In this document: piece by piece, positions 7,033 to 31,650 of the stretch
Layout of the letters: the number at the start of each line of letters is the position of its first letter
Numbering within the stretch: the stretch's first letter is position 1
NCBI RefSeq assembly: GCF_000012285.1
Contig: NC_007181.1
Span: 210,001-242,000, forward strand
Length of the DNA: 32,000 nt
Source of the DNA: Sulfolobus acidocaldarius DSM 639
GTDB lineage: Archaea; Thermoproteota; Thermoprotei_A; Sulfolobales; Sulfolobaceae
Direction of reading: 5' to 3'
Notes under the pieces: model-generated
What the model was told of the DNA's origin: nothing
Databases searched by the model: none
What the model saw: the letters and a program-made list of their open reading frames with translations, nothing else
Translations under genes and position numbers: made by a program

Positions 7033-7090
7033 GTGAATGATGTGGAATCCGGGATCTGAGAATGATGACAAAAAGCGCGAGCGCTGATTA
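7033..7090 (+). ncRNA. Candidate C/D box sRNA (2'-O-methylation guide)
   Basis: Boxes read directly: C-like AUGAUGU 7037-7043, 12-nt spacer, D' CUGA 7056-7059, C' AUGAUGA 7062-7068, 15-nt spacer, D CUGA 7084-7087. The total of about 55 nt is typical of archaeal sRNAs. It lies between the permease stop and the accC promoter. Confidence 0.5.
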
Positions 7091-13186: not shown

Positions 13187-13384
13187 ATGAATGGCGTCAA
13201 GAAACTTGACGATAATACCTTTGAACTTGAAATGAGCGGTGTTAAAACAATTTCCTTTAAACTTGATGATGATTTTTTGCAGGAAGTCGATAAAATGGTA
13301 AGACTTCTTGGTTATACAAATAGAAGTGATCTCATAAGAGATGCAATACTTGAGTACATCAGTGAGCTAGAAGATAAAACATGA
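13187..13384 (+). CDS. Ribbon-helix-helix (CopG/NikR-N-like) DNA-binding protein
   Basis: 65 aa. The segment TISFKLDDDFLQEVDKMVRLLGYTNRSDLIRDAILEYI follows a beta-strand, helix, helix RHH pattern. It overlaps the PiT start by 4 nt (ATGA). Confidence 0.65.
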   Translation: MNGVKKLDDNTFELEMSGVKTISFKLDDDFLQEVDKMVRLLGYTNRSDLIRDAILEYISELEDKT

Positions 13385-14352
13385 TAGATATAAGCCTTAT
13401 ACTATCTATACTTATATTTGTTTTTGGTATTACACTGTCTTTTATAGTAGGTGGGAATAACTCGGCAATATCTTTAGGGATTTTAGTTTCAACAAATGTA
13501 ATGAAGCGAAAATATTCCTACCTTGTTAGTGCAATCTCAATATTTTTAGGGGCATCAGTTGGGAGTCTAACTATGTTTAAGAGCGTACATGGCATAGTTA
13601 ACACGTCAGATGAGCTAATAGCAAAAGTCATCATAGTATGCATACTCTTCTCATCGATACTGTCCTTCTTCTATCTAAATAGAATGGGGGTTCCTACTGC
13701 TCTAAGCCAAATGATATATCCTTCTTTAGCAGTCATCTCGCTAGTCACTAGGATAGCTTTCCTTTGGAGTGCTTTCCTAGTGACTCTAGTGTCCTGGATG
13801 GTTTCACCATTAGTAGCAATAATTTCAGCTCTTTTATTATACAGATTAGTTCATGTCTTCTTGAAGAATACTAAAGGGATAATTGAACAGGTGAAGTATT
13901 ACAGGGTAATCATATTGATAGCCTCTGCATTGACATCGTTTGTAACAGGGGCTAATGCTGTAGGTATCATAATCTCAACTGGGCTATTTGCATTACCAGA
14001 ATATATAATAGTACCGTGTTATGCGCTAGCAGCTGCCATAGGGATTTACCTGAGTTCATGGAGGGCAGTGATCACAGTAGGTTTTAGGGTGACCAAGCTG
14101 GGTTATGCAAGTGCGTCCTCAGCACTTATAGGAAGCGCATTAGTATCTGAAGTTTTTACGGTATTTAGTGTGCCCATATCTATTACGCAAACAGTTATGG
14201 GAGGAATAATAGGTTTAAGTTTTAGGAGTCTTACTTCTGATATAGAGAAGCAGTTAAAACAAATAGGTCGTGGTTGGTTACTATCTCCAACGTTTTCCAT
14301 TATAGTATCTTTAGCCCTGTATGGTATAATAAGAAGTATTTTAGGATTTTAA
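13381..14352 (+). CDS. PiT-family inorganic phosphate (or sulfate) transporter
   Basis: 323 aa polytopic protein. The N-terminal GGNNSAISLG and C-terminal GANAVG motifs resemble the PHO4/PiT GANDVAN repeats. A DUF47 partner gene is adjacent. Confidence 0.7.
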   Translation: MIDISLILSILIFVFGITLSFIVGGNNSAISLGILVSTNVMKRKYSYLVSAISIFLGASVGSLTMFKSVHGIVNTSDELIAKVIIVCILFSSILSFFYLNRMGVPTALSQMIYPSLAVISLVTRIAFLWSAFLVTLVSWMVSPLVAIISALLLYRLVHVFLKNTKGIIEQVKYYRVIILIASALTSFVTGANAVGIIISTGLFALPEYIIVPCYALAAAIGIYLSSWRAVITVGFRVTKLGYASASSALIGSALVSEVFTVFSVPISITQTVMGGIIGLSFRSLTSDIEKQLKQIGRGWLLSPTFSIIVSLALYGIIRSILGF

Positions 14353-15003
14353 TGTAGCGTATAATATTTTTATGCTCAGTACTGCACTCTCCATGCTGTC
14401 CAATATGTCGTCAAGGAAAAATATGGCATCTCTTGTCTGTAACAGAGTTATTAGATGGAGTGAGTCCTCCATATCGTATAGCCTCGTTATGATCATGTCT
14501 TTGATTTCATCTCCACTCCTCTCCAACATCTGCACCTCTTTTCCAACTTTAAGTGCTGAGGCTATGTCCTTTGGTAATAGGGACAACATTAAAACTACTT
14601 TATCAGACGCCTCAAGAATTATAGAAATATATGAGAGAAGACTTTCCTTCAGAGTTGTCAAACACTTTTCATCAACTCTCCTGGCTGTCAACGCCCTACC
14701 TGCATCCTTCGCTGAAGCACTTGCCCTGTATAGATCTTGTGTAAGCATAACTATAGCCTCCTTAAAGTCAGGCAGAAACGCTTCACTGTATATTACTGAG
14801 AGTAATTCCTCCCTGGTCATGCTTATCTTTTCGTTCAAAGATTTGATTTTAATTAGACTACTGTTTTTCATGTCGTCGTCCTTGACCAATAGGGCGTTTA
14901 TTAACTGTCTCAAAGCTTCAGCTGTAGTTTTCAAATCTTCTCCTATTTTGATTAGCTTGTCAAATACCTCTTGCTCTCTGTTGATTCTAATTTTTAGTAC
15001 CAT
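14341..15003 (-). CDS. DUF47/PhoU-like putative phosphate-transport regulator (TIGR00153-like)
   Basis: 220 aa, all-helical, with a two-repeat architecture and an E..GDEI motif (LERSGDEIKDMII). Its 3' end overlaps the PiT 3' end by 12 nt in convergent orientation. Confidence 0.6.
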   Translation of the reverse strand: MVLKIRINREQEVFDKLIKIGEDLKTTAEALRQLINALLVKDDDMKNSSLIKIKSLNEKISMTREELLSVIYSEAFLPDFKEAIVMLTQDLYRASASAKDAGRALTARRVDEKCLTTLKESLLSYISIILEASDKVVLMLSLLPKDIASALKVGKEVQMLERSGDEIKDMIITRLYDMEDSLHLITLLQTRDAIFFLDDILDSMESAVLSIKILYATLKS

Positions 15004-15058: not shown

Positions 15059-16192
15059 CTATTCCTTTAACCCTTCAGCTAAACTTCTCAATTTCCTAAG
15101 TGCAAATTCCCTGTCTTTCTCTTCGGTCTTGATCCTTTGCAGTATATCCTCTAAGGTGTAGATTACCTCATATGCAACCTTCCTGTTAACTGGAAATGGA
15201 ATACCGTCCTTTCCTCCAATTGCATAAGCATATTTAAAGGGATCGTAAGGCATGTTAACAGGGTCATTATAGGAGGGCGGTTCATTATATATTAAATCTG
15301 CCACAAGATATAGCGCCCTAGTACTAGATGGACCTAAACCATGTAAGAGTGCCTCCTCTAAATTAGATGGGTTTACTTCATATACCTTATGTAGTATTTG
15401 CCTAATTTTGGATATCTCTATCGGCTTCATGTAAATTCTCCTCTTCTTTATATCAACCTTGAACGCGGAGGGATTATCTAGTGTGGTCTGTCCTTTTATC
15501 ATATTTTCAGCCTTTACTACGTCATTAATTAATTTCTCAGGAGGCTCTTTAAGGAGGTCAACCATCAACTTTCTTGTATTCTCCACATTCTTATCTACGG
15601 CATTTATGGCAATTTCCTGTTTTACACCCATTATGCCTTTATGCGGTTCAACTAGGAAGTTTTCAGTAGAAAGCCAATGGTACCTCCTGGCAAATCTGGT
15701 CTCCAGATTCATCCCCTGTTGTATAATACCCCATTTTCCGCTTTCACTAACTAAAACTGAGTGGTGATATAGCGTATGTCCATCCTGAATTAGTGTACTA
15801 TCAACTTTAGCCACTAATCTACTGGCTCTTTCAATCTTTTCAAGGTTTACAGAAAATTTTCCTCTAAGGCTGTTTAATTCATCAGGGACTTTTAAGGCAT
15901 TTTTACCTTTACCGCCTAATACTGCTATTCCTTCTTCCTCTGGTTTTATAACTTCTTTGAGTATTCCTAACGTAACTGTGGTTGAACCAGAGGAGTCCCA
16001 ATCCATGCCTATGATATTGTTAAACCCTTGAAACCACAGAGGGTTTGATAGCCTCTCAACTACTTTATCTGGACCCCACTCAATTATCATCACGTCTATA
16101 ATAGCCTTTGATAACCTCCTCATAATACTTGCTAACCAGTAGGGAACTTTACCTGTGTGAAGCGGTAAATCTGCTATTCCTTCGAGACCCAC
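15059..16192 (-). CDS. Conserved archaeal protein of unknown function (DUF763-like)
   Basis: 377 aa. The N-terminal ADLPLHTGKVPYWL..RRLSKAI and DWDSSGSTTVT segments match my recollection of DUF763. No catalytic assignment is possible. Confidence 0.5.
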   Translation of the reverse strand: MGLEGIADLPLHTGKVPYWLASIMRRLSKAIIDVMIIEWGPDKVVERLSNPLWFQGFNNIIGMDWDSSGSTTVTLGILKEVIKPEEEGIAVLGGKGKNALKVPDELNSLRGKFSVNLEKIERASRLVAKVDSTLIQDGHTLYHHSVLVSESGKWGIIQQGMNLETRFARRYHWLSTENFLVEPHKGIMGVKQEIAINAVDKNVENTRKLMVDLLKEPPEKLINDVVKAENMIKGQTTLDNPSAFKVDIKKRRIYMKPIEISKIRQILHKVYEVNPSNLEEALLHGLGPSSTRALYLVADLIYNEPPSYNDPVNMPYDPFKYAYAIGGKDGIPFPVNRKVAYEVIYTLEDILQRIKTEEKDREFALRKLRSLAEGLKE

Positions 16193-16226
16193 AAATAGCT
16201 TTTCTAGTAGTAATACGATTTATATT

Positions 16227-16892
16227 TTGATGCTAATAGCAGCAACATCAGATATCCATTCACCTAGATATCTAACGCAGTTCTTTGCTTCATTTAATTT
16301 AATAAGGAATCTCTCCATTGATATATTCCTTTTAGCAGGTGATTTAGCCAATGAAGGAGAGTACATACACTTTAAACCGGTATACGATGTTCTAAAGAGG
16401 TTTAGGACAATAGCAGTATTTGGAAATGAGGACTTTAGGGAGAACAGGGATTCGTATAAGGAAACTTATCCTGATATAAAATGGTTGGAAGAGGATATCG
16501 TGGAGTTCGAGTTGGGAGATATCTTAGTCAGTATAATCGGTAGTGACGGCGTTTTAGAAGAACCTACAAAGTGGCAAAAACTTAACGGTATTGATGAGAA
16601 CTATTATAGGGAGAAGGCTAGAAAAATAGAGGATTTACTGTGTAAGGCTAGAGGAGACGTGAAGTTACTTTTGACACATTACGCATGTACATTTATGACT
16701 GTCCAGGGAGAGAAAAAGAGCATATTTCCCCACTTGGGTTATAGGATACTTGAGGAAACCAGCTGTTTACCCCATTTGGCTATACATGGTCATGCGCATC
16801 ACTCTAAAGTCACTCAAGGCTTGGTTAGAGGAGTGAGAGTTTATAACGTTGCGTTACCTGCTAATCATAAGATTGTCTTAATAAGGTTATAG
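16227..16892 (+). CDS. Calcineurin-like metallophosphoesterase
   Basis: Motifs SDIH, AGDL, GNED and GHAHH occur in canonical order. The likely start is ATG 16230, immediately after TTG 16227. Confidence 0.7.
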   Translation: MMLIAATSDIHSPRYLTQFFASFNLIRNLSIDIFLLAGDLANEGEYIHFKPVYDVLKRFRTIAVFGNEDFRENRDSYKETYPDIKWLEEDIVEFELGDILVSIIGSDGVLEEPTKWQKLNGIDENYYREKARKIEDLLCKARGDVKLLLTHYACTFMTVQGEKKSIFPHLGYRILEETSCLPHLAIHGHAHHSKVTQGLVRGVRVYNVALPANHKIVLIRL

Positions 16893-16898
16893 ATACTA

Positions 16899-17720
16899 CT
16901 AACAAGTATATTTACATTGTAGTGCCAGGTTATACGCGGCGTTAAAGTCTCTGTCAGCCTTGTAACCACATGATGGACAGACAAATAACGGTCCCATCAC
17001 TTCACCTCTCCTGAATCCACAGTTAGAGCAAATTTTGCTCGTGTAATATGGGGGAAGTTTTCTGAACTTAACTCCCTTCCTATATAGGTGACTCTCTAGT
17101 TCTTTCTCCACAGTTCTCAATGCACTGCCTATTTTACTCTCAAAATATTCTAAATCCTCTATTGCGACTACTTTAGGGTTAAGGTCTTGGATAAATGACA
17201 CAACATCTCTTATGATATTACCAATCTTACCCTTTATCGTCCTTATTTCTGAAACTCCCTGCGGATCACCGATTACCTTTATCATCTCTTCAGTTATTAC
17301 ATCGTTTCCCCAATATCTTACTTTCCAGAGGCTATCTTCTCTAATCGACACCACTGTGATTAAGTGCCTCACCCCGATGTCAATACCAACTATTGATTTA
17401 GGCTTTTCATAAGCTAGAAAAACTCTCACGTCATCTGAAAATTCAGCTATAGCATAGAGAGGAGGTGATCTTCTTGTCGAACTCACTAGAGCATCGACTT
17501 CAGGTATTCTATAGGGACTTGTATTTCCTATTATTCTCAATGGACCGTATCTTATTTTGTTACTTGAGGAGGTGGCTTGATAATACAATTCACGGGGTAT
17601 ATTTGAGGGGGGAGGACCCCCCTTCACTATCTTCGAGTACTCCCTGATAAACAAAATCTGTTTATGGATCTCTTTTAATTTTCCGTAATTCAAAATTTTA
17701 GCTTCTATCAGCTCTTCCAT
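16899..17720 (-). CDS. Miniature TnpB/IS605-OrfB-like RuvC nuclease with a Zn ribbon (273 aa)
   Basis: RuvC-I VGIDIGV (D114), RuvC-II AIEDL (E188), Zn ribbon CSNC..CPSC (C231/234/248/251) and RuvC-III ADRDFNAAYNL (D256/D258) are present. The N-terminal WED/REC region is strongly reduced. There is no tnpA or IS ends. Confidence 0.7.
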   Translation of the reverse strand: MEELIEAKILNYGKLKEIHKQILFIREYSKIVKGGPPPSNIPRELYYQATSSSNKIRYGPLRIIGNTSPYRIPEVDALVSSTRRSPPLYAIAEFSDDVRVFLAYEKPKSIVGIDIGVRHLITVVSIREDSLWKVRYWGNDVITEEMIKVIGDPQGVSEIRTIKGKIGNIIRDVVSFIQDLNPKVVAIEDLEYFESKIGSALRTVEKELESHLYRKGVKFRKLPPYYTSKICSNCGFRRGEVMGPLFVCPSCGYKADRDFNAAYNLALQCKYTC

Positions 17721-17746
17721 AAGATTAATTATAACTAGTCATACAT

Positions 17747-18460
17747 TTAAATTTCGATTACACTACCCTGTCTTAATTCCTCACCTTTAACTCCATAGTA
17801 ATACATAACAGTGGAAGAGAAAACATAGTTTTCATATCTATACATCTTGTAGTAATCTTCTACATCCCTCATCTTATTCTTATTGTAATAATGCCCGACC
17901 AAGAGAGATACATCCTCATTACTTAATGATAAGAGAATTGAGTTCAAAGTGACTGAAAACTCAGACAGCTTGATTATTGTCTCCTCATAGGCTCTCTTCA
18001 CATCAAGGTTGTTTCTATCGATGTTCTTTATTATCTCTTGCAGGAAAAGGTAACTATCTGTTGAAGGGTAGTTTGGGTCTTCAAATGCTTTTCTACTTAT
18101 AGATCCATTATGGGCGAAGTAAATATCCAGATTCTTTGTCCTCACATGATATGGGTGATTATGCCTTACTCCTAAAAGAAAACCCTTTCCAGCTCTCCTG
18201 ACATGAATCATGCCTATTACTCTGTCTCCTTTCAATAGGCTTGCAATATCATAAAATGTGGGATCATCATAAATTGGGATTGGTGACTTGAAGTGGAGTA
18301 CTCTGGGTTTATTATCCCTATATATAATTGCTGAAATTCCCCAACCATGAGGGTGATTGAGATATCTAGAAAACACATCGTTTCTTGCAGCATCAATTAG
18401 GGATTTCAAAGCCTTATGGTCAACTTCACCTTTTACTGAAAATCCTAATAATCTACACAT
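17747..18460 (-). CDS. Class II (Ntn-type, YafJ/EgtC-like) glutamine amidotransferase-like protein
   Basis: The N-terminal MCRLLG provides the Cys2 nucleophile. HPHGWGI and HVRRAG..HPY..FAHNGSI motifs are typical of GATase_4/6 proteins. Confidence 0.7.
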   Translation of the reverse strand: MCRLLGFSVKGEVDHKALKSLIDAARNDVFSRYLNHPHGWGISAIIYRDNKPRVLHFKSPIPIYDDPTFYDIASLLKGDRVIGMIHVRRAGKGFLLGVRHNHPYHVRTKNLDIYFAHNGSISRKAFEDPNYPSTDSYLFLQEIIKNIDRNNLDVKRAYEETIIKLSEFSVTLNSILLSLSNEDVSLLVGHYYNKNKMRDVEDYYKMYRYENYVFSSTVMYYYGVKGEELRQGSVIEI

Positions 18461-19148
18461 TTAATACTAACCCATCATATGCTACTATATAATTCTTGGC
18501 TATTAATTTAACTTGATCTTCTATTTGTGAAGGTATATGTGTCATAACTAACTTGCTTGGACTCGAAAACATTGATAGTAATTGTTTAACTGATGTATGT
18601 CCATATTTAGAACACTCCTCTAAGCAACTTGCCTCATGGATAACCAAATCAGCGTCCTTAATTTCCTCCATAATTGGCTCACACGGCTGGGACGTATCTC
18701 CGGTATACACAATTTTCCTTTTATTATCGGTTATCACATACGAAACAGCGTATATTGCATGGCAAGCCTCCACAGAGTATATGTTTAAGTCTCCTACCTT
18801 CCCTTTAGGTTTACTTTCCTCGATCAACTTTATGTTTATACCATTCCATTTTTGATAAGAGCTAAGTATTTCGTATAGTCCGGGAGGAGATCTAATTTCT
18901 ACGTCAGGAAGACCGAAAATTCTTCTGTATATTAAGTGGTCAGGGATTCCGTTTATGTGGTCAATATGTAAATGTGTTACAAATATTGCAGAGAAATCCA
19001 CTAGTTCCAGGTCATCTAATTTGAAACTTGCTCCAGAACCTAAATCCAGTAGTAGTGACCCTTCACTGCCTTTCACATATATAGAGGATTTCACTCTTTT
19101 GCTCCCTTTTGTTGACCCTGCTCCAGTTCCCACAAAGACTATTTTCAC
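18453..19148 (-). CDS. MBL-fold metallo-hydrolase (RNase Z/ElaC-like small form)
   Basis: 231 aa with the HLHIDH metal-binding motif, DLGSG, and downstream TGDT and H residues. The start is GTG, and it overlaps the GATase start by 8 nt. Confidence 0.75.
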   Translation of the reverse strand: MKIVFVGTGAGSTKGSKRVKSSIYVKGSEGSLLLDLGSGASFKLDDLELVDFSAIFVTHLHIDHINGIPDHLIYRRIFGLPDVEIRSPPGLYEILSSYQKWNGINIKLIEESKPKGKVGDLNIYSVEACHAIYAVSYVITDNKRKIVYTGDTSQPCEPIMEEIKDADLVIHEASCLEECSKYGHTSVKQLLSMFSSPSKLVMTHIPSQIEDQVKLIAKNYIVAYDGLVLNV

Positions 19149-21313: not shown

Positions 21314-21353
21314 AAATAATTAGAGTGAAGGGCATGAATAAAAATAATTCTAG

Positions 21354-21965
21354 TCACTTTATTTTCTTATAGGGACACAAAGTCTTAAAGGCACAATATT
21401 CACATTCCCAGGAATAACGTGGAGCTATCTTAGCCTTCAACGTCTCTTCTGCTAATCTTATTATAGTTACCTCCTCTGCGGGTTCGTTTACTGAGTATTC
21501 GGTGACCCTATCTGGTGTTATGTATACCAAAAGTCCTCTCTTTATCCCAAAAAGCCAGAGGTAAATTTGCAGTTGATATTTGTGATGTTCATGCGGTAGG
21601 CTTCTGTCTGCCCTAGCACTCTTTATTTCAACTATGACCTTTTCGTCGTTTATCTGTATTATGGCGTCTGCTCTACCCTTAATCTTTATCTCCTTTCCGT
21701 CTACCGGAATAGTCTTCTCTCCTTCAACTTCGATTTGAGAGTTGGGGTACACACTCTTTATGAATTCCTGTAGTCCTAAATGAACAAGGTCTCCTAGCAT
21801 AGTAGCTGGGGTGAACGCTTCAGATAGTGCGATCTCTTTATACATGGTCTCAAATCTAAGTTTCATGGGGCATCTCAGTAGGTCTGTAACGTATAATACT
21901 CCCTCTTCTCTTTGGTGGGACATATAGTCCTTTATTTTGGAATTTATAAGAGCCTCGATCAGCAT
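21354..21965 (-). CDS. cas4: Stand-alone Cas4-like PD-(D/E)XK exonuclease with four Fe-S cysteines (DUF83)
   Basis: 203 aa. It has an N-terminal Cys (LLRCP), GRADAI, VEIKSAR, YQLQIY (QxxxY) and a C-terminal CEYCAFKTLC, which together match the Cas4/RecB motifs. No cas genes or CRISPR array are present in the window. Confidence 0.75.
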   Translation of the reverse strand: MLIEALINSKIKDYMSHQREEGVLYVTDLLRCPMKLRFETMYKEIALSEAFTPATMLGDLVHLGLQEFIKSVYPNSQIEVEGEKTIPVDGKEIKIKGRADAIIQINDEKVIVEIKSARADRSLPHEHHKYQLQIYLWLFGIKRGLLVYITPDRVTEYSVNEPAEEVTIIRLAEETLKAKIAPRYSWECEYCAFKTLCPYKKIK

Positions 21966-31187: not shown

Positions 31188-31621
31188 ATAATCAAATAGT
31201 TAGTTACTACTCATACGTTCTCATATTTTCATCCATTCTAATAATAATAGGATTGGTATTTGGTGGCTTTACACCAATAAATGAACAAGTGGCAACACCC
31301 AGTTATGATCTAGCATTACCTGTGAGCTTAAGCTTTTCAGCCTTCATACTTCTAATTATTTTCATTTTCTCCTCCATTATCTTGTGGGGCTCCAAGAGTT
31401 TAGCCTCGAACTTAATTATAGATTCCTCTGCACTTTCCTTTTCAATCCTTAACTACGTCAATTTTTATGTCATATATGAGATATGGAGACCTGAAATCAT
31501 TCCATTACCATTATTTTTTTACATACACTACAGCAACATAAACGAGCTTACGGTGGATTTCGGACAAATAGCCTTAATCATATTCTTCTATAGGCTCTAT
31601 AAGAGAAATAAAAGTGTTTAG
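31184..31621 (+). CDS. Hypothetical membrane protein (145 aa, about 4 TM helices)
   Basis: The GTG start overlaps the upstream stop (GTGA). The protein has hydrophobic helices and a basic C-terminus. Confidence 0.45.
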   Translation: MNNQIVSYYSYVLIFSSILIIIGLVFGGFTPINEQVATPSYDLALPVSLSFSAFILLIIFIFSSIILWGSKSLASNLIIDSSALSFSILNYVNFYVIYEIWRPEIIPLPLFFYIHYSNINELTVDFGQIALIIFFYRLYKRNKSV

Positions 31622-31643
31622 AAATCAGTTTAGAAATCAGTTA
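31616..31643. repeat. 12-bp tandem repeat (GTTTAGAAATCA x2 plus a partial GTTA)
   Basis: Read directly. The first unit contains the TAG stop of the 145-aa ORF, and the second unit repeats an in-frame TAG. Confidence 0.6.
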
Positions 31644-31650
31644 AGAAAAA

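Follow-up and report, generated by a model that had tools for sequence, protein, structure and literature searches.

TnpB is the ancestor of Cas12 and belongs to one of the most abundant gene families of prokaryotes. The locus described here raises the question of what a protein of 273 residues with the nuclease motifs of TnpB, lying apart from any transposon, does in the chromosome of Sulfolobus acidocaldarius DSM 639. It is the product of Saci_0269, in a stretch of 32,000 nucleotides of contig NC_007181.1 (the window; genome coordinates are window coordinates plus 210000, and positions of this locus are given in window coordinates). A preliminary description of the DNA had taken it for a domesticated TnpB derivative, possibly still catalytically active, and not for the cargo of a transposon. 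The present analysis supports this view. It is nearly certain that Saci_0269 is domesticated: the gene is single-copy, syntenic, under purifying selection and free of element ends. The protein is also likely to be catalytically competent, an activity that we infer from a catalytic triad that is invariant and aligned with that of AsCas12f.

The gene, its catalytic residues and its domains are arranged as follows.

16899..17720, minus strand: Saci_0269 (SACI_RS01310; WP_011277187.1), a complete open reading frame (ORF) with an ATG start, 273 residues; 226899..227720(-) in the genome annotation file
17688..17717, minus strand: N-terminal beta strand, residues 2-11, the first WED-like strand (AlphaFold2 strand E2-11, predicted local distance difference test score (pLDDT) 94; conserved EELVEAKI)
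17553..17687, minus strand: remnant of REC, residues 12-56, with helices 15-31 and 43-50 and the proline-rich loop GPPPSNIP (AlphaFold2 secondary structure and profile comparison)
17406..17552, minus strand: WED-like strands, residues 57-105 (AlphaFold2 strands 57-61, 70-72, 77-80, 89-93 and 99-105)
17379..17381, minus strand: codon of D114 in RuvC-I GIDIG (gtc on the plus strand, GAC on the minus strand), invariant in 29 orthologues and aligned with GIDLG of AsCas12f (8j1j position 235)
17157..17159, minus strand: codon of E188 in RuvC-II AIEDL, invariant and aligned with E324 of MEDL in AsCas12f chain 7wju
16968..17030, minus strand: zinc ribbon C231-x2-C234...C248-x2-C251 inside the TNB domain (PF07282, residues 206-265), its four cysteines invariant
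16947..16949, minus strand: codon of D258 in RuvC-III DRDFNAA (D256/R257/D258), invariant together with R257 and aligned with D401 of ADYNAA in chain 7wju

The elements of the catalytic layout noted previously (D114, E188, the CxxC..CxxC ribbon and D256/D258) were all found at the positions given for them, and the interval between RuvC-I and RuvC-II, put at about 75 residues, measures 74 from D114 to E188. Comparison with the profiles suggested at that time gave a significant match to PF07282, the Cas12f1-like TNB domain (expectation value (E) 6.9e-18; 65 bits against a cutoff of 26.3), and a match to PF01385 (OrfB_IS605) that stays below threshold (16.3 bits against 30.5). PF12323, the N-terminal TnpB domain of Pfam, has no match in Saci_0269, and the NCBIfam model NF040570 (guided_TnpB) scores 69.3 bits and does not reach its cutoff of 100. 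It is because of the sub-threshold OrfB_IS605 trace and of a guided_TnpB score of 69 bits against 100 that the public annotation is as bland as "zinc ribbon domain-containing protein". Orthologues in several genomes carry the label "transposase".

The relationship to TnpB is evident from comparison of profiles. An hhalign alignment of 29 orthologues with 31 diverse full-length TnpBs has a probability of 99.95% and an E of 2.7e-38, and places family columns 92-276 on columns 161-367 of the 400 in the TnpB profile. Family columns 1-91 do not align to that profile, in which the corresponding N-terminal part takes up about 160 columns, compared with about 91 in the family of Saci_0269. Hidden Markov model alignments to Protein Data Bank (PDB) chains 8j1j and 7wju match D114, E188 and D258 with the catalytic residues D225, E324 and D401 of AsCas12f, position 235 of 8j1j being native D225. 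The D/E/D residues had been predicted to occupy the catalytic positions of RuvC, and this is where the alignments with AsCas12f and with the TnpB profile put them. Judged by these alignments, the motif match to the RuvC domain of TnpB and Cas12 is far beyond chance. Upstream of the core, positions 58-112 of the family profile align with residues 134-184 of 9yyg_A, a TnpB-like chain of 408 residues.

The AlphaFold2 model of Saci_0269 (pLDDT 91.1; predicted template-modelling score 0.77) consists of a strand at residues 2-11, helices at 15-31 and 43-50, five strands between 57 and 105, and then the RuvC/TNB core. As modelled, the domain order is the WED-beta1/REC/WED/RuvC/TNB order of TnpB, with a REC of about 45 residues. 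The earlier impression that REC is missing therefore holds in part: the domain is strongly reduced, but it is not wholly gone, and two helices in a stretch of about 45 residues (12-56) are left of it. The best PDB matches of the model in Foldseek are Cas12f, TnpB and Fanzor proteins, with E down to 2.6e-11. RuvC of Thermus is among the fold matches as well (E 2e-4), and the matches in BFVD are TnpB-like viral proteins.

Saci_0269 belongs to a compact family, referred to below as mini-TnpB. A word-indexed search returned 36 clusters of proteins of 272-282 residues, with E from 1e-180 to 1e-57, from Sulfolobus, Sulfurisphaera, Stygiolobus, Sulfuracidifex, Acidianus, Saccharolobus, Metallosphaera, Aramenus, Sulfodiicoccus and metagenome-assembled genomes (MAGs) of Sulfolobales; past these members the scores fall sharply to about 1e-6, at which point the matches are ordinary TnpBs of 412 residues. 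An exhaustive HMMER search of 1.84 billion protein representatives found 7 clusters at E of 1e-30 or below, and the next match, at 4.7e-19, covers the RuvC/TNB half only. By these scores the family is closed, with a gap of about 34 orders of magnitude between its E-values and those of ordinary TnpBs. Orthologues of 272-285 residues occur in most of the Sulfolobales genera examined. The short TnpB-like matches P0167, P0168 and P0172 were considered as members and rejected, being contig-edge fragments or unrelated short forms.

D114, E188, D258, R257 and the cysteines C231, C234, C248 and C251 are invariant in the 29 orthologues, which share 42-64% identity, and these residues are also kept in the divergent members P0162 (Sulfolobales MAGs) and P0163 (hot-spring metagenomes) and in S. 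islandicus. The ratio of non-synonymous to synonymous substitution rates (dN/dS) is 0.036 for a pair from Sulfuracidifex, 0.066 for a pair from Saccharolobus, and at most 0.18 wherever dS is unsaturated. Absence or decay of the orthologues in close relatives had been named as a sign of a pseudogene; they are intact and syntenic, at dN/dS values of 0.04-0.18, in the genera listed below for the gene order, in Stygiolobus and in deep uncultured lineages of Sulfolobales. In one locus, that of Sulfolobales archaeon HS-7 (L008 5930-6822), the annotated product has 247 residues, but the reading frame extends further upstream, and the conserved strand and helix of the N-terminus are encoded in this part. 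The extension has no ATG, GTG or TTG start, so that the gene has either an unusual start codon or is an N-terminally truncated orthologue.

The immediate neighbours of the gene are the following.

16227..16892, plus strand: metallophosphoesterase Saci_0268, convergent with Saci_0269 (Pfam Metallophos)
16893..16898, no strand: spacer of 6 bp between Saci_0269 and the convergent gene, from the ORF map
17747..18460, minus strand: GATase_4 gene Saci_0270, upstream (Pfam)
18453..19148, minus strand: MBL-fold hydrolase Saci_0271, upstream (Pfam)

Both intergenic distances reported before, 6 bp on the downstream side (16893-16898) and 26 bp between the start of Saci_0269 and the GATase_4 gene (17721-17746), are correct. 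A downstream spacer of 6 bp is too short to accommodate the right end of a transposon or the scaffold of a downstream omega RNA. No inverted or direct repeats are present in 16000-18600 and no TnpA or serine recombinase within 6 kb on either side of the gene, in agreement with the previously claimed absence of tnpA and of element ends; the single tandem repeat of the window, a 12-bp unit in 2.8 copies, is at 31616-31648. Nor is Saci_0269 a copy of a multi-copy insertion sequence (IS). Each genome has one member of the family, the 32-kb window contains no second TnpB-like sequence, and IMG/VR, the INPHARED phages and the PLSDB plasmids contain no relative at family level, their matches reaching at most about 31% identity over alignments of more than 100 residues, mainly in the RuvC/TNB part. 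There is no CRISPR array in the window, nor are there cas genes. The GC content of the gene (39.3%, compared with 38.2% for the window) reveals no compositional anomaly.

The position of the gene is conserved across the order. The gene order GT2, Cas4-like, ThiD, PfkB, MBL hydrolase, GATase_4, (small ORF), mini-TnpB is found in at least eight genera, in loci from Sulfolobus, Sulfurisphaera, Saccharolobus (including S. islandicus), Sulfuracidifex, Metallosphaera, Acidianus, Aramenus and a deep Yellowstone lineage. A contig scan gave at least seven of the Sulfolobales loci, and the remaining evidence for synteny comes from look-ups of exact proteins. In Sulfodiicoccus, in HS-7 and in the lineage of P0163, mini-TnpB stands in other gene contexts. 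The metallophosphoesterase gene Saci_0268 is a lineage-specific neighbour outside the conserved module, and other genera have different genes at its place.

Several features of the neighbouring genes deserve to be recorded here. Saci_0274, at about 21350-21960 (L001 1756-2367), encodes a stand-alone Cas4-like PD-(D/E)xK nuclease which belongs to the conserved block and is distant from any CRISPR array; an antisense RNA, asRNA_108, is annotated opposite to it. The MBL hydrolase Saci_0271 (18453-19148, minus strand) has a sub-threshold match to the anti-Pycsar protein Apyc1 (19.6 bits against a cutoff of 50), and in terms of COG it is an RNase Z paralogue. In three divergent lineages, S. acidocaldarius, Sulfodiicoccus (L086) and the P0163 lineage (L089), genes of phosphate uptake adjoin mini-TnpB or lie near it. 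Genes for RHH, PHO4 and PhoU_div/DUF47 proteins are found at 13187-15003 in S. acidocaldarius (Saci_0264-0266) and at 2775-4749 of L086, and pstSCAB-phoU at 1-3731 of L089. This proximity may represent ancestral synteny or may be a functional hint.

The gene is transcribed, and on its own terms. In the DESeq2 results given in File S2 of PMC12817955, a post-transcriptional atlas of S. acidocaldarius, the baseMean is 7675 for Saci_0269, 1258 for Saci_0270 and 918 for Saci_0268. The log2 fold changes of Saci_0269 in two comparisons are +0.2 and +0.26, and those of Saci_0270 are -2.35 and -2.03; in the same comparisons Saci_0270, Saci_0271 and Saci_0272 drop by 1 to 2.35 log2 units. Because its baseMean differs from that of Saci_0270 and its regulation from that of Saci_0270-0272, Saci_0269 is a separate, well-expressed transcription unit. 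A possible promoter element is consistent with this.

17745..17751, minus strand: putative archaeal TATA box TTTAAAT, at -31 to -25 of the ATG and within the 3' end of the GATase gene, as read from the sequence

If TTTAAAT does act as a promoter, the transcript would be a leaderless mRNA. In the same study (Table S2), asRNA_107 is listed as antisense to Saci_0268, with a positive expression correlation (r 0.65, p 2.6e-5). As an antisense RNA of Saci_0268, asRNA_107 falls on the strand of Saci_0269, just downstream of it.

With regard to dispensability, the essential-gene lists from transposon sequencing of S. islandicus M.16.4 (PMC6249222) include no gene of arCOG00679 (IS605 OrfB). Nor do these complete lists include any gene of the range M164_2109-2121, in which the orthologue is expected to lie, the locus tags being mapped by the offset between strains. 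The gene had been described as fixed in a housekeeping locus. It is fixed and syntenic, but the word "housekeeping" is too strong, as the orthologue is probably non-essential in S. islandicus.

In canonical TnpB systems the omega RNA overlaps the 3' end of the ORF and runs into conserved right-end sequence. No counterpart of this arrangement was found in mini-TnpB. The gene on the 3' side changes with the genus (metallophosphoesterase, histone-deacetylase-like, M24 peptidase and others), and in at least seven lineages there is either an overlap with the stop codon or a gap of at most 6 bp, namely in S. acidocaldarius, S. tokodaii, S. islandicus, two lineages of Acidianus, Sulfodiicoccus and the Yellowstone lineage. 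Where the downstream spacer is long, about 540-580 bp in Saccharolobus caldissimus, Sulfuracidifex and HS-7, BLAST detects no similarity among the three. Within the ORF, identity at synonymous codons is flat (0.24-0.52, mean 0.41; 0.40-0.47 at the 3' end), and the structure-conservation index of RNAalifold in a sliding window is about 0 along the ORF and 0.09 in the last window. In S. acidocaldarius the 3' end with 200 nt downstream folds like shuffled sequences (z = -0.46), and no Rfam family was matched near mini-TnpB in ten loci, the window and nine orthologous ones. As far as sequence analysis reaches, a conserved cis-encoded omega RNA is excluded.

The composition of the protein points in the same direction. 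Members of the family have a net charge of +7 to +12 (pI about 9.1), compared with +23 to +50 (pI 9.8-10.4) in the ordinary TnpBs sampled. This lower charge fits the loss of a large RNA scaffold, and such a scaffold for Saci_0269 seems unlikely. A short or trans-encoded RNA, or one that arises by lineage-specific 3' read-through, may serve the protein.

Some other RNA-like features were seen in the course of this search. In S. caldissimus, a GC-rich insertion of 537 bp with inverted repeats (L085 5850-6385) separates mini-TnpB from the deacetylase gene, at a site where the gap in S. islandicus is 2 bp; it has no Rfam match and may be a miniature inverted-repeat transposable element or a structured RNA. 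A GC-rich motif of 25 nt, GAGGCTTTCCGCnCCCTTAACCTAA, is 96% identical between L085 6283-6307 (plus strand) of S. caldissimus and L086 2356-2380 (minus strand) of Sulfodiicoccus. In each of the two loci a TTTAAATA box precedes the motif by about 25-45 nt, and in L085 a T-run comes after it. The motif resembles a small unannotated RNA gene. It was considered as an RNA shared by the family and rejected as unrelated, being found neither in the window nor in the remaining loci. The sole Rfam match of the window is the C/D-box small RNA sR33 at 7033-7089 (plus strand; RF01120, 47 bits, above the gathering score).

A possible protein partner was sought in the small ORF of 87-112 residues, here ORF87, which lies between GATase_4 and mini-TnpB in Aramenus, Sulfuracidifex, one lineage of Acidianus and the deep Yellowstone lineage.

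L003 5705-5974: small ORF
L004 5712-5975: small ORF
L005 5665-5931: small ORF
L009 5705-5974: small ORF
L087 4718-4981: small ORF
L173 4578-4916: small ORF

At this position the ORF is missing in S. acidocaldarius, Sulfurisphaera, Saccharolobus, Metallosphaera and A. copahuensis. Since it is absent beside an intact mini-TnpB in several genera, it is not an obligatory cis-encoded partner. Its product has no match in Pfam or PADLOC and no RHH or AbrB signature, and the homologues returned by the word-indexed search, within the limits of its word index, come from Acidianus. The AlphaFold2 model, built from two sequences, consists of a helix, three strands and two helices (pLDDT 80) and has no significant PDB match with that two-sequence alignment. 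For lack of a Pfam, PADLOC or fold match, and for its absence in several genera, ORF87 was rejected as a partner or antitoxin of mini-TnpB.

Taken together, these results suggest the following history and function. The nuclease of a TnpB ancestor would have been fixed in the chromosome before the radiation of Sulfolobales and would then have been inherited vertically as a single-copy host gene. On this account the WED beta domain, an entire split RuvC (D114/E188/D258) and TNB with its zinc ribbon remain, and most of REC has gone, together with the ends of the transposon, the partner transposase and any omega RNA encoded in cis. Its own promoter would drive fairly high, steady transcription of a metal-dependent RuvC-type endonuclease that acts on nucleic acid in a host process dispensable for laboratory growth. 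The choice of substrate would be independent of a canonical 3'-encoded omega RNA, with targeting by a short trans RNA, by DNA or RNA structure, or by a protein partner. As a whole, the proposal of a metal-dependent RuvC-type endonuclease that takes part in a non-essential host process, and is targeted without a canonical cis omega RNA, appears to us rather probable. Its observed basis is the homology, the domains, the invariant residues, the immobility, the synteny, the purifying selection, the transcription and the lack of a conserved cis RNA; that the protein cuts, what it acts on and how it is targeted are what we infer. A trans-encoded or short RNA guide for Saci_0269 and guide-independent recognition seem about equally plausible, each being somewhat less likely than not.

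Several points weigh against this proposal. To our knowledge, every characterised TnpB, Cas12, Fanzor and TldR needs a guide RNA, and a guide-free member would be unprecedented. The tests based on synonymous sites and on RNAalifold have limited power at the divergence of this family, and asRNA_107, annotated in PMC12817955 as antisense to Saci_0268 and so on the gene strand just downstream of Saci_0269, could be an RNA derived from the 3' end. The triad could be kept for a structural or RNA-processing role and not for DNA cleavage. The S. islandicus orthologue is probably dispensable in rich medium, which counts against a housekeeping function, and the literature search found no mention of Saci_0269 or of the inferred orthologue tags.

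The explanation closest to the one preferred here is that Saci_0269 is a bona fide RNA-guided DNA endonuclease, the smallest known, with a guide encoded elsewhere or cut from its own 3' read-through, and perhaps dimeric like Cas12f, which would offset the loss of REC. All three of WED, RuvC and TNB are kept, and in TnpB it is these parts that bear the active site and hold the omega-RNA scaffold; the nearest structural matches are dimeric Cas12f enzymes; asRNA_107 is encoded on the same strand immediately downstream (PMC12817955); and the characterised relatives are all RNA-guided (PMC10691335). Against these similarities, no lineage has a conserved sequence or structure in or beside the gene, the gene that follows on the 3' side varies from genus to genus, the REC domain that cradles the guide-target duplex is down to two helices, and guide-bound TnpBs carry two to three times as much net positive charge per residue. 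We regard this explanation as possible, although our judgement inclines away from it. A different role, that of a programmable or sequence-specific DNA-binding regulator similar to TldR, with the triad kept for metal- or RNA-dependent folding or for RNA processing, would agree with the steady, moderately high expression, as expected of a regulator, with the phosphate-uptake genes beside or near the gene in S. acidocaldarius, in Sulfodiicoccus L086 and in L089, and with the repressor role of those domesticated TnpBs that have been characterised to date (bioRxiv 10.1101/2023.11.30.569447). TldRs are, however, defined by the loss of RuvC residues, whereas D/E/D and R257 are invariant order-wide in mini-TnpB; there is no adjacent guide RNA locus, and the neighbours do not include a consistent target gene. 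This makes a TldR-like function improbable.

Still less can be said for a toxin. If Saci_0269 belonged to a two-gene module of toxin-antitoxin or defence type, the small upstream ORF of 87-112 residues would be its inhibitor, by analogy with the archaeal RHH/MazE-TnpB pairs. The homologous ORF is indeed directly upstream in Aramenus, Sulfuracidifex, the Acidianus lineage and the Yellowstone lineage, and TnpB toxins with small upstream partners were proposed by Altae-Tran et al. (2023; PMC10691335). Yet the ORF is missing at that site beside an intact nuclease in S. acidocaldarius, Sulfurisphaera, Saccharolobus, Metallosphaera and A. copahuensis, and where it is present it lacks an RHH/AbrB signature and a Pfam, PADLOC or significant PDB match. 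An unopposed toxin at the baseMean of 7675 found for Saci_0269 would be lethal. The distribution of mini-TnpB is, moreover, vertical and syntenic and not patchy, and its catalytic site is canonical and not rearranged. We consider a toxin highly improbable. The last explanation, a decaying or truncated IS200/IS605/IS607 remnant (a pseudogene) or a still-mobile minimal element, could appeal to the "transposase" annotation in several genomes and to a length below that of a normal TnpB. It is effectively refuted by the uniform size of 272-285 residues, dN/dS values of 0.04-0.07, order-wide synteny, one copy per genome, the lack of element ends, and the expression of the gene.

Comparison with characterised systems helps to define the proposed host nuclease. 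The order of elements in Saci_0269 is the same as in TnpB (for example ISDra2 TnpB, 408 residues): beta strand, helical insert, WED, RuvC-I GxDxG, RuvC-II xEDL, TNB and RuvC-III DRDxNAA. In contrast to TnpB, Saci_0269 is about 130 residues shorter, its REC is reduced to two helices, its RuvC-I/II linker is shorter and it has no C-terminal tail; it falls under the curated thresholds of PF01385 and NF040570; it is far less basic; and it is a single-copy, syntenic, vertically inherited gene with no cis omega RNA, transposon ends or TnpA. Cas12f proteins (400-550 residues) are its best PDB matches in both sequence and structure, with catalytic residues that correspond one to one, but Saci_0269 is about half to two-thirds of their size, lacks the REC and zinc-finger N-terminal parts, and has no CRISPR array or cas genes in its window. 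With the RuvC Holliday-junction resolvase it has in common the RNase H-like fold and the acidic catalytic residues. This likeness is limited to the shared catalytic core, and the WED domain and the zinc-ribbon insert, both present in Saci_0269, are absent from the resolvase. A guide-free activity similar to that of the resolvase is a hypothesis for Saci_0269.

Other TnpB descendants have also left their transposons. In TldR, as in Saci_0269, a TnpB derivative has passed from the transposon to the host and is encoded among conserved neighbours. The catalytic residues of RuvC are lost in TldRs, and an adjacent guide RNA targets a linked promoter (Wiegand et al., bioRxiv 10.1101/2023.11.30.569447). 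As had been pointed out in the preliminary description, Saci_0269 differs in retaining the triad, which proves to be invariant across the family; it also has no adjacent guide locus, and its MBL and GATase4 neighbours are regulated differently. Altae-Tran et al. (2023; PMC10691335) state that there are TnpB clades which are not mobile, have a predicted-active nuclease and for the most part lack linkage to other genes, and the present family resembles them as an immobile archaeal TnpB with a predicted-active nuclease. The category is therefore not wholly new, as these clades have already been noted there. In the archaeal RHH/MazE-TnpB group of the same source the catalytic site is rearranged, the 3' untranslated region is long and the distribution is patchy, unlike mini-TnpB, in which the site is canonical, the 3' region is absent and the distribution is vertical; the gene upstream of Saci_0269 is GATase_4. 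In the literature apart from the supplementary tables of Altae-Tran et al., no description was found of a mini-TnpB family in Sulfolobales, of its shortened REC or of its synteny across the order.

Two outcomes would carry the finding further, and we hold it unlikely, though conceivable, that either will be realised. With a trans guide, Saci_0269 would be the smallest natural RNA-guided nuclease, at about 275 residues and some 100 residues below any characterised TnpB; acting without a guide, it would be the first guide-independent cellular nuclease derived from TnpB, conserved order-wide and engaged, for example, in recombination, repair or RNA processing.

The exits of TnpB from transposons known to us are CRISPR effectors, the Fanzors of eukaryotes and the nuclease-dead TldR repressors. 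In our opinion, an order-wide, vertically inherited and well-expressed derivative that keeps the cutting site, but has dispensed with most of REC and with any cis guide, would represent a different outcome of domestication. Its function can be tested directly, as markerless genetics is available in S. acidocaldarius and S. islandicus and the gene is apparently non-essential. Should the protein use RNA, it would be thermostable and would push the minimum size of programmable nucleases further down; should it not, it would show how a guide-dependent enzyme can revert to a conventional one.

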